Positions 8,797-25,114 of a DNA stretch of 32,000 nt are shown one piece after another (the first letter of the stretch is position 1; each line of letters begins with the position of its first letter). Where the stretch lies: assembly GCA_016933055.1 (NCBI GenBank), contig JAFGBS010000009.1, forward strand, positions 510,001 through 542,000. Direction: 5' to 3'. A program made the translations under genes and the position numbers. The stretch comes from Promethearchaeota archaeon (GTDB taxonomy: Archaea; Asgardarchaeota; Lokiarchaeia; Sigyniarchaeales; Promethearchaeaceae). Below the pieces are notes generated by a model. That model made no database searches, was not told the origin of the DNA, and saw only the letters and a program-made list of their open reading frames with translations.

Positions 8797-10482
8797 TTAA
8801 TCGACTTCAGGTTGGAAATCAGATAATTCCTTGGATGCATCTAATTCTTCTTCGTACTTTCTTTTGAGCCCCCACTTTCGCCTTCTTCTATCCCGTTTAA
8901 TCATTTTTTCCTCAATCCTTGTTTGAATATGCTCATGGGGTTCTAAATCGAATCGGGTGTATCCCTCTTTACCATGAAGCTTGTCTATAGTGTGTATATA
9001 CATTAATGTGATATAGGACATATTCAAATCATTTAGAACTAATAAAGAACTCATAGAACCTACAATTCCAAATAAAATTGCACCTACGATAACCAATGGA
9101 GTTTTATTAATATCTGCAAAATACCCAATAATCCATGCAATCGTACCTCCTAATAATGCGCTCAAACCGATAGAAGCAAATTTGATAAATTTAAACAATT
9201 TGTTCACGTTGGATTGCTTAATATACAAATCGGGTATGTTTTGTATCACTGTGTGGAGTGAACGAGGTAAAGCAAGGAAGAAAGGTTTGTCCTCAATGGA
9301 GATTGCCGGAAGTGTAAAATAGTTCATCGCTAACCATATTCTTTTATAGAGTGGGACTTCCTTTCGGAATTGTTTTCTCCATCGTAACCGTGCCAGCAAA
9401 CCAAATCTAATCCCCTTAACACCTTTACGTGCTGCACGCTTAGCTTTACGTTTCTGGCGTGCGAAGGGTTCTAGTGCCATAGGGTTCTCGGGAAGTAAAT
9501 CAAATGACGTTTTTAGGGATTCGAATAAATTTTTGGGTTCAATTTCTTTCTTAAGTAATTTTCGCACAAATTTTATAGAATGGATAATTGTCGATGTGAA
9601 TGCATATGTCATCACAGCCCACCAACGTCTGCGAGCAATTCCCCATGCATGCCACCAAGATAAATTTCCGCCACGATACCAATGATGAACCATATTTATT
9701 TTCATTGTTAAGGTCACAAAGATCACAATATATACCAGAAACACGAATGCAACTGAATATCCAATATATGCCCATGTTTCCGTAATCTCGATACTTTTTC
9801 CATAAAACTCAATAGTAGTTCCGTCAAAACTGTCTAAGCCTAAGAAGGTATTGGCCGTGAACACGAAATGGAAGAATAATAAGGTAAATATCCAGAATGT
9901 TTGTACAAATTGAGGTACTAACAGTTTTCTTTCTTGCCAGACGACCAAACAACTCATTTTCGTATATTCCACAGCAAGTGCAAATTTTTTGTGCCAGATC
10001 GTCATAATAACGATTTGGAGAACTAACGGGACTAGAAATATCCACCGTAACCACCAAGGATAATCAGGAAAATTTGAGGGAGATAAATAATAAAAAATAA
10101 GCCCAAACATTATCATTTGGAGGATAGCAGTACCATACATGAACCACGCGGCCCATTTACTGAAGAATCGAACTATTAGATAATTTACTCCCAATGTGAG
10201 GATGTATACTGCAATAAACGCAACTGCAACCTGCCAGGCATTCCCTAAAACAAGATCTGCGACACCCTGGGGGATCAATCCGCTTATTGCTTCATATTGA
10301 GTCTGGATGTATTTGATAAAATCTACCAATCGTACAACTCCCCATGCATAATAACCTCCAAATACGAGGATTAGGATGATCTCCCCCAACACATCAAAAA
10401 ATCCATGCCCAGCATATCGATACGATTTCAAATCAAACGTACCATCTTCTAAATAAAATTGTTTGTAATTTGAAAAAAACAT
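8797..10482 (-). CDS. Polytopic membrane protein (about 10 TM), choline-transporter-like (SLC44/CTL/PNS1) candidate
   Basis: Hydrophobic pattern plus CTL-like segments in the expected order: FFDVLGEIILILVFGGY, KFALAVEYTKMSCLVVWQERKLLVP, HHWY after TM6, MNYFTLPAISIEDKPFFLALPRS...N, SYITLMY near the C-terminus. Recognised by eye only. Confidence 0.6.
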   Translation of the reverse strand: MFFSNYKQFYLEDGTFDLKSYRYAGHGFFDVLGEIILILVFGGYYAWGVVRLVDFIKYIQTQYEAISGLIPQGVADLVLGNAWQVAVAFIAVYILTLGVNYLIVRFFSKWAAWFMYGTAILQMIMFGLIFYYLSPSNFPDYPWWLRWIFLVPLVLQIVIMTIWHKKFALAVEYTKMSCLVVWQERKLLVPQFVQTFWIFTLLFFHFVFTANTFLGLDSFDGTTIEFYGKSIEITETWAYIGYSVAFVFLVYIVIFVTLTMKINMVHHWYRGGNLSWWHAWGIARRRWWAVMTYAFTSTIIHSIKFVRKLLKKEIEPKNLFESLKTSFDLLPENPMALEPFARQKRKAKRAARKGVKGIRFGLLARLRWRKQFRKEVPLYKRIWLAMNYFTLPAISIEDKPFFLALPRSLHTVIQNIPDLYIKQSNVNKLFKFIKFASIGLSALLGGTIAWIIGYFADINKTPLVIVGAILFGIVGSMSSLLVLNDLNMSYITLMYIHTIDKLHGKEGYTRFDLEPHEHIQTRIEEKMIKRDRRRRKWGLKRKYEEELDASKELSDFQPEVD

Positions 10483-10645
10483 AGTTTTTCAACCTTTTTT
10501 TTTTGTAAGAATAAAGCGAAAGTTAGGGGTAAAAATATATGGTTAGATTTGAAGAAAACCTATCGCAAGGGAATTTATGTAATTCATAAAATCCTCTTGT
10601 CAGATCATCTGAATAGTAAATTTATATAGAAAAAAAGATTTAAAC

Positions 10646-10900
10646 TCAGTTTCCACCTGCTTGAGTTGCCATAACGGTGATTATGTCTTTTTTTGGATGG
10701 ATACCGACTTTATTGAACTTAATATTGTCCGGGAGAACCTTTCCTTTATAGATGAACTGGATTGCTAGGATAGGATTCAATTTATATTCTTGTTGAACTG
10801 CTTTCTTAATTTCTCCAATTGGTTTCTCAGGATCGAGTTCTATCATTTTCATAGCCTGATCAGGTGGAACACCTGTAAGCCGAAATCGGAATTGTGCCAT
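10646..10900 (-). CDS. Ubiquitin-like protein (eukaryote-type beta-grasp) ending in GG-N
   Basis: IGEIKKAVQQEY, IQFIYKGKVLPD (cf. ubiquitin RLIFAGKQLED), C-terminal TQAGGN-stop. Confidence 0.85.
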   Translation of the reverse strand: MAQFRFRLTGVPPDQAMKMIELDPEKPIGEIKKAVQQEYKLNPILAIQFIYKGKVLPDNIKFNKVGIHPKKDIITVMATQAGGN

Positions 10901-10996
10901 ATTTTTTACCTTTTTTAATTTTTAACCTTATATTTCACACTTTTATTTTTTTTAAGATTGTATATAATAGTTAGTTTTATGTTCGTAATAATGTAT

Positions 10997-24379: not shown

Positions 24380-25114
24380 TTAGCAGAAACATTTGGGATT
24401 TTTTGATAGTTTCACTTGAAGGAACTGCATTTGTTCTAAATCCACCATTATTAAGGTATTCAGTAATCGTCCCTCCTTCCTCAACAACCCTTTAATTACT
24501 TCAGCTGCCTGCATAGCTCCCAATGTACCCGCAGTAAAACCAAATATTCCAATAGGATCCGAATAGTTATCCAAAGCACCTTCTATGTCAGATTTACCAA
24601 AAACACATCGGTAACATGCAGTTTTATGAGGTATTACAGACATCAATTGTCCTTCGAATTCCCGAACCCCAGCAATTGTAAAGGGAATATTCATTTTGAT
24701 ACCAATGTCATTCACAAGAAATTTGGTTTGTGCACTATCACTGGCATCCACTAGATAATCTGCGTCTGAAATGTAATCCGCATAATTTTTATTTGTTAAT
24801 TTCGCATTAATGATATTTATTTTAACATCTGGATTAAGCTCGTTTAATTTAATTTTTGCTACATCAGTTTTTAATGAACCTAAATCGGGGATGGAGTACA
24901 ATATTTGTCGATTTAAATTGGATATTGAAACAGTATCATATTCAATTAATGTTAAGGTTCCAATTCCCATAGCGACGAGATAATAGGCTAATGGGGATCC
25001 CAATCCTCCAATTCCAACCTGTACGACATGTTTTGAAAGAAGTGACTCTTGTTCTCCCTCAGAAATTTTTCCAAGGTGACGAGAGTATCGCTCTTTTTGT
25101 AATGGTGTGAGCAT
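24380..25114 (-). CDS. ThiF/MoeB/UbaA-family adenylyltransferase (E1-like)
   Basis: ERYSRH, VGIGGLGS, YDTVSISNLNRQ, DASD, CYRC and terminal KCFC. Confidence 0.88.
   Translation of the reverse strand: MLTPLQKERYSRHLGKISEGEQESLLSKHVVQVGIGGLGSPLAYYLVAMGIGTLTLIEYDTVSISNLNRQILYSIPDLGSLKTDVAKIKLNELNPDVKINIINAKLTNKNYADYISDADYLVDASDSAQTKFLVNDIGIKMNIPFTIAGVREFEGQLMSVIPHKTACYRCVFGKSDIEGALDNYSDPIGIFGFTAGTLGAMQAAEVIKGLLRKEGRLLNTLIMVDLEQMQFLQVKLSKNPKCFC

Follow-up and report, generated by a model that had tools for sequence, protein, structure and literature searches.

The stand-alone ubiquitin gene of Lokiarchaeia, its short variable tail past the diglycine and a candidate set of partner enzymes

In yeast, Rub1 and the last unit of Ubi4 are made as precursors ending in GG-N, and the Asn is removed by cysteine DUBs before conjugation. 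Such proteases have not been found in archaea, and CsRpn11 of Caldiarchaeum subterraneum trims the ubiquitin precursor CsUb-pre after its GG (PMC6043591). Likewise, a pro-ubiquitin (pro-Ub) of Helarchaeia was conjugated in vitro by an E1, an E2 and a RING protein after removal of its tail (10.1101/2023.07.25.550441). Tails after the GG are described for the Caldiarchaeum, Odin and Hel ubiquitins (PMC6043591; PMC9192718; 10.1101/2023.07.25.550441). As for Lokiarchaeia, DSAG12_00424 of Promethearchaeum syntrophicum MK-D1 was shown as a ubiquitin-like protein (PMC7015854, Suppl. Fig. 9 and Table 3), with transcripts at RPKM 324 and those of an E2 gene at RPKM 341 (PMC7015854). The accessible part of PMC9192718 reports that Loki Ub binds the Loki UEV protein in two-hybrid assays, and it assigns no E1, E2 or protease to Lokiarch_37670. 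In the literature that we searched, no report was found of conjugation or trimming for the Lokiarch_37670/DSAG12_00424 family. The ‘MK-D1 UB’ imaged in HeLa cells (10.1101/2025.11.01.685982) is probably DSAG12_00424, because this is the sole PF00240 gene of MK-D1.

The ubiquitin (Ub) gene analysed here shares with the Caldiarchaeum Ub/E1/E2/RING/Rpn11 system (PMC5654768, PMC6043591) and with the Helarchaeia pro-Ub cascade a eukaryote-type Ub fold, a tail past the GG, which is cut by a JAMM protease in Caldiarchaeum, and, as proposed below, an E1/E2 cascade. The genes of those systems are clustered and biochemically proven, whereas the putative partners of the lokiarchaeial Ub are scattered and known here from their genes; the clustering of Ub with E1, E2, RING and Rpn11 seen in Caldiarchaeum is absent at our locus. 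Our protein and CsUb are about 20% identical. The gene lies on the minus strand at 10646..10900 of the window (the whole 32,000-nt stretch of DNA analysed) and encodes 84 aa from an ATG start, immediately 5′ of which stands AGGT. Its 3′ end reads GGT GGA AAC TGA (G-G-N-stop), giving the C-terminus TQAGG-N. By homology, and from its conservation in homologues and loci, the Gly82-Gly83 pair (codons at 10652..10657, minus strand) would be the conjugating end, capped by Asn84 (codon at 10649..10651, minus strand), a single residue that is variable or missing in orthologues. The 96-nt AT-rich spacer between the gene and the upstream AsnC-domain gene (10901..10996, minus strand) may hold its own promoter, and a run of seven T that begins 10 nt past the stop (10630..10636, minus strand) is a possible archaeal oligo-T terminator; together, both features would be consistent with a separate transcript. 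A scan for bacterial-type terminators, the archaeal oligo-T type being outside its scope, returned none at the gene, and the sigma-70 promoter scan is uninformative for archaea.

The original prediction had described an orphan eukaryote-type ubiquitin-like protein with the motif FIYKGKVLPD and a terminal AGGN-stop, and these features proved right, with FIYKGKVLPD at residues 49-58. The protein matches PF00240 above the cut-off (E 8.7e-8) and otherwise only Rad60-SLD, weakly (Pfam, E ≤ 0.1). Its AlphaFold model (pLDDT 91.6) has a beta-grasp fold whose best matches are ubiquitin, ISG15 and the Dsk2 UBL, tied at Z 11-12 with rmsd of about 2 over 73-78 aligned residues, and it also resembles Caldiarchaeum Ub in structure comparison. 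No match to SAMP, MoaD or ThiS profiles was found (Pfam E ≤ 0.1; NCBIfam). Assignment to Rub1/NEDD8 failed, since identity to NEDD8 in the structural alignment is 17%, which does not exceed that to ubiquitin. Identity with UFM1, raised by a match of the N-terminus seen by eye, was rejected: PF03671 has no match in the source genome at E ≤ 1, and the end is GG. Ufm1 does not appear among the 50 fold matches listed for the model, which by itself does not speak against a likeness in structure. UFM1 and the Asgard Ufm1 homologues have a single-Gly (Val-Gly) end (PMC12962969).

The ORF is real and not a chance one, because 166 homologues exist, the 120 listed being 67-94% identical to it. The named ones among the matches listed are all from Asgard archaea, nearly all of them Promethearchaeota/Lokiarchaeota. 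In PMC9192718 (Supplementary Data 1), Lokiarch_37670|Ub of Lokiarchaeum sp. GC14_75 is identical at 66/83 positions by hand count (about 80%), and like our protein it has a TQAGG end followed by a tail, which is ISIIH there and N here. Identity is 78% to DSAG12_00424 and 76% to the Loki-B35 orthologue. DSAG12_00424 is likewise a stand-alone gene; it ends in a free GG, for which no trimming is needed, whereas our protein is capped. Judged by sequence, the 84-aa protein is thus the already known lokiarchaeial ubiquitin, orthologous to Lokiarch_37670 and DSAG12_00424, and its novelty is not supported. The gene is a real but ordinary member of a published family, to which we add only a proposed partner set and a two-pathway reading.

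A strong profile match was found in 135/161 Lokiarchaeia genomes, mostly in single copy, and the source genome (G000, 91% complete) has one match, the sole family copy. Other Asgard classes gave weak profile matches only (E 4e-7 or worse) and no clear orthologue. Many orthologues have ATT at the expected position of the ATG start (L054, L061, L063, L064, L075, L076, L081, L195). Four orthologues contain stop-bearing inserts of 30-31 nt (L063:327-605, L064:334-612, L237:401-680, L065:279-557), three at KKDVI/T and one at HP/KKD, the removal of which restores the Ub protein and its GG. When the inserts are cut at their sole or best sites, the geometry is bulge-helix-bulge, with a central helix of 4/4 in three cases and 3/4 in one, and they are probably tRNA-type mRNA introns; in the literature searched, we found no report of such introns in Asgard protein genes. 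At least 13 more database proteins carry a 10-residue insert at the KKDVI/T site. The copy in the window has no intron. Separately, inner stops that suggest small introns were seen within the matches of E1b orthologues (described below) in G216, G225, G189, G212 and G181, and, with 30 extra bases, in E2b orthologues of G252, G180, G181 and G162.

The check on GG conservation that came with the original prediction gave a clear answer. The GG stands at the C-terminal end of the fold in 114/120 listed homologues and at 56/58 genomic loci, and one exception regains it once a 31-nt insert is removed. Among the 114 GG-bearing proteins, the tail past the GG has no residue in 28, one in 57, two in 8 and more in 21. 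Among 52 distinct loci, 14 have a free GG and 33 a one-residue tail, with 11 different residues found directly after the GG; tails of at most two residues occur in 50/52, against 17% expected by chance from the downstream DNA. This comparison indicates that the tail is constrained in length, being kept short, and that the identity of its residues is free to drift. On the Ub gene tree, free GG is scattered, with 12 changes against a shuffled mean of 12.5, a rough count on a weakly supported tree of 240 nt. One-residue tails outnumber free GG by about two to one (57:28 proteins; 33:14 loci), whereas plain drift predicts about 1:1, and the excess may reflect ancestry or a mild selective benefit of the cap. 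The proposal that GG-N is a special cap is not supported by these data, as many other residues occur in the place of N, the protein of the nearest relative (AMARA_1, 93% identical) ends in GG-C, and about a quarter of the orthologues, MK-D1 included, end in a free GG. The single Asn past the GG that our protein has in common with Rub1 and the terminal Ubi4 unit of yeast is a coincidence, because it is not conserved in the Loki orthologues.

The Ub gene is stand-alone in the window and at nearly all fetched orthologue loci; the exceptions are G143, where an E2 paralogue adjoins it, and G281, where the distance to an E1-like gene is about 3 kb. Upstream of our copy are AsnC-domain, V4R, thioredoxin-like and Rab-like genes, and downstream is a 561-aa membrane protein. 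That no E2, RING E3 or JAB gene is adjacent, as had been stated, holds for the whole window in genome-wide searches. The 561-aa protein (8797-10482) has no Pfam or NCBIfam match; in the Atlas it falls close to clusters of DUF6159 and of choline-transporter-like proteins (score 0.91; TM of 0.58 against a CTL model), which makes ‘CTL-like’ a fair lead. A ThiF/MoeB/UbaA-type gene, which the original prediction left unmentioned, lies at 24380-25114, 13.5 kb from the Ub gene, its likeness to UbaA/MoeB being below cut-offs. As an E1 for Ub it was rejected, being of the MoeB/UbaA type without the Uba3-like catalytic motif. Downstream of it, on the same strand, are eIF-2B-family, RuBisCO large-chain and UbiA-like genes.

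The E1, E2 and JAB genes that the original prediction proposed to seek elsewhere in the genome were found on contigs C16, C17, C22 and C27, all outside the window. In the source genome, catalytic motifs are intact in two Uba3-like E1s, two E2s and four Rpn11-like MPN+ proteins. One set forms an operon (G000:C16:92959-97312) that encodes a Ubl tag ending STAG-M, a 415-aa E1, a 175-aa E2 and a 266-aa JAB, and a gene for a 396-aa membrane protein follows it (L005, L001). The N-terminus of the operon tag is extended by an acidic stretch, and many relatives have several copies of the tag; in every orthologue read it ends in PASTAG plus 0-6 residues, a pattern (Ala-Gly plus 0 to 6 residues) like that of the Ub tail. 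Beside the operon, and divergent from its tag gene, G000:C16:91955-92806 encodes a coiled-coil protein in which SKTP motifs recur; the N-terminal extension of the tag likewise holds SKTP twice. Scattered over the genome are the second Uba3-like E1 (E1b, 531 aa, C27:25414-27009), the second E2 (E2b, 169 aa, C22:160041-160550), the three Rpn11-like MPN+ proteins besides the operon JAB, one of which has 319 aa (C17:428202-429161), and a UEV/Vps23-like protein (C22:187602-189458) that resembles Lokiarch_16100 by eye. The adenylation domains of the operon E1 and E1b are 42-46% identical. When the Ubl was modelled in complex with both E1a and E1b, the score was 0.25 (mark 0.32), a value that carries no weight in what follows. 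Four further small GG-ending ORFs of this genome look MoaD/ThiS-like by eye.

We then compared the presence of these genes across Lokiarchaeia, where the operon E1 and E2 are present in about three quarters of the genomes. The operon tag is correlated with the operon E1 (phi 0.84), whereas the Ub gene is not (phi 0.00), the counts coming from related genomes and not being independent. Neither the operon tag nor the operon E1 was found in 28 genomes, 23 of which, MK-D1 included, have the Ub gene. Five operon-less genomes that are 92-100% complete (G142, which is MK-D1, G134, G136, G146 and G148) were read in this respect. In all five, the Ub gene is the sole PF00240 match, E2b is the sole E2 over the cut-off, E1b alone among the ThiF-family proteins read has the Uba3-like AACT..G.PR motif (the G134 copy being taken from a separate E1b search), and an orthologue of the 319-aa MPN+ protein is present with its HSH..S..D motif intact. 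Four of them keep a tail on Ub (Y, N, I, I) and have no orthologue of the operon JAB, which was thus rejected as a required trimming enzyme. At least 26 genomes, G000 and MK-D1 not being among them, have E1b and E2b on the same contig, no more than 12 kb apart, and at L066:366-2452 (G143:C630) three genes stand in a row, namely Ub, one for a 379-aa protein that contains a related Ubl domain, and a paralogue of E2b. The presence of the Ub gene and of E2b is weakly correlated (phi 0.15), because nearly every genome has both and most absences go with gaps in the assemblies. For families f4-f7, where E1b matches mainly over its N-terminal domain, its orthology is unsure. By elimination in these few related genomes, the scattered E1b and E2b are the likely partners of the GG Ub.

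Taken together, we propose, with a probability of about 0.7 for the whole chain, that this is the housekeeping Ub of Lokiarchaeia, synthesised in this genome with a single extra residue, and that it would be trimmed and passed from E1b to E2b to lysines. The enzymatic steps are drawn from the Caldiarchaeum and Helarchaeia precedents together with the elimination above. Removal of Asn84 to expose Gly83 would be the work of a JAMM/MPN+ protease, which we consider reasonably probable, and the best candidate, a tentative choice at somewhat less than even odds, would be the 319-aa MPN+ protein and not the operon JAB. Activation of the GG end by E1b and transfer of Ub to E2b is well favoured, and the joining of Ub to lysines of its targets, with help from an E3, is highly likely. 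At least part of the Ub would be read by the UEV/Vps23-like protein. The tail would be tolerated because it is trimmed, leaving its residues to drift and its length alone to stay short. The pro-form matured in trans that had been suggested hence remains the likely reading, with E1, E2 and JAB genes elsewhere in the genome, although the Asn cap itself is not conserved. The C16 operon with its Ala-Gly tag is probably a separate accessory pathway, and we lean slightly towards two orthogonal Ubl pathways in Lokiarchaeia, namely a scattered core (GG Ub, E1b, E2b and probably the 319-aa MPN+ protein) and the Ala-Gly operon; MK-D1, which lacks the operon that G000 has, would keep the core alone.

Where the operon exists, its E1, E2 and Rpn11-like JAB could also process the GG Ub as one cross-reacting system, as the intact motifs of the operon E1 and E2, their spread over most of the class and the likeness of the two adenylation domains would allow. 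We regard this as unlikely, since the Ub gene persists without the operon and the operon E1 tracks the Ala-Gly tag and not Ub. It is less probable still that the protein, with its tail left on, serves as an adaptor that binds non-covalently through its ubiquitin fold, in the manner of a free UBL domain. The best single-domain PDB sequence matches are indeed the non-conjugated UBL domains of Get5/Mdy2 and Rad23, the C-terminal end is blocked in about three quarters of the orthologues, and related Ubl domains are fused to other proteins, as in L066 and L067. However, the fold closes with GG in nearly all cases even as the residue after it drifts, the fused copies have VAG or SAG in its place, and MK-D1 retains a single E2 and a Uba3-like E1, for which its genome offers no further ubiquitin-family gene as a substrate. 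The fusion at L067:1080-1724 (G172:C508) joins a related Ubl domain ending VAG to a Roadblock/LC7-like domain, on weak Pfam matches.

SAMPs also end in GG, and the ThiF/UbaA-type enzyme of the window might activate the protein for E2-independent tagging or sulfur transfer. Against this stand the ubiquitin-type sequence family and fold, which are not those of ThiS/MoaD, the four other small GG-ending ORFs, which look MoaD/ThiS-like by eye, the lack of a ThiF gene near Ub orthologues in the fetched loci, and the finding that the proteases for Caldiarchaeum Ub and for SAMP are mutually exclusive (PMC6043591), so that we give this use very little weight. Equally improbable is the local role put forward originally, in which the adjoining Rab, V4R or CTL-like proteins would be the targets and the Asn cap a control point. 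The genes are co-oriented in the window and in AMARA_1, but of some 50 distinct loci, AMARA_1 is the only one in which orthologues of the Rab, V4R, Trx, AsnC and CTL-like genes flank Ub. At the others, the gene most often found next to Ub is an unrelated one in divergent orientation, which encodes a conserved protein of about 440 aa whose N-terminus looks HTH-like by eye (33 loci, L036:2-1258 and 32 others; most family f3 loci plus a few others), and the cap is missing from about a quarter of the orthologues in a scattered manner. The position of the Ub gene is no evidence on its targets.

In the literature searched, we found no paper that assigns the two-pathway split or names an E1b/E2b/MPN+ partner set, and such a named candidate set for the Ub of cultured Asgard archaea is the contribution of this study. 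The variable tail cautions that GG-X is the usual end of Asgard Ubl genes and does not point to special regulation. If the two-pathway reading is true, MK-D1, a cultured Asgard archaeon, would have a minimal system with a single tag and a single E2, and if the two tags are insulated from each other, parallel ubiquitin-like pathways would exist in a prokaryotic sister group of eukaryotes.
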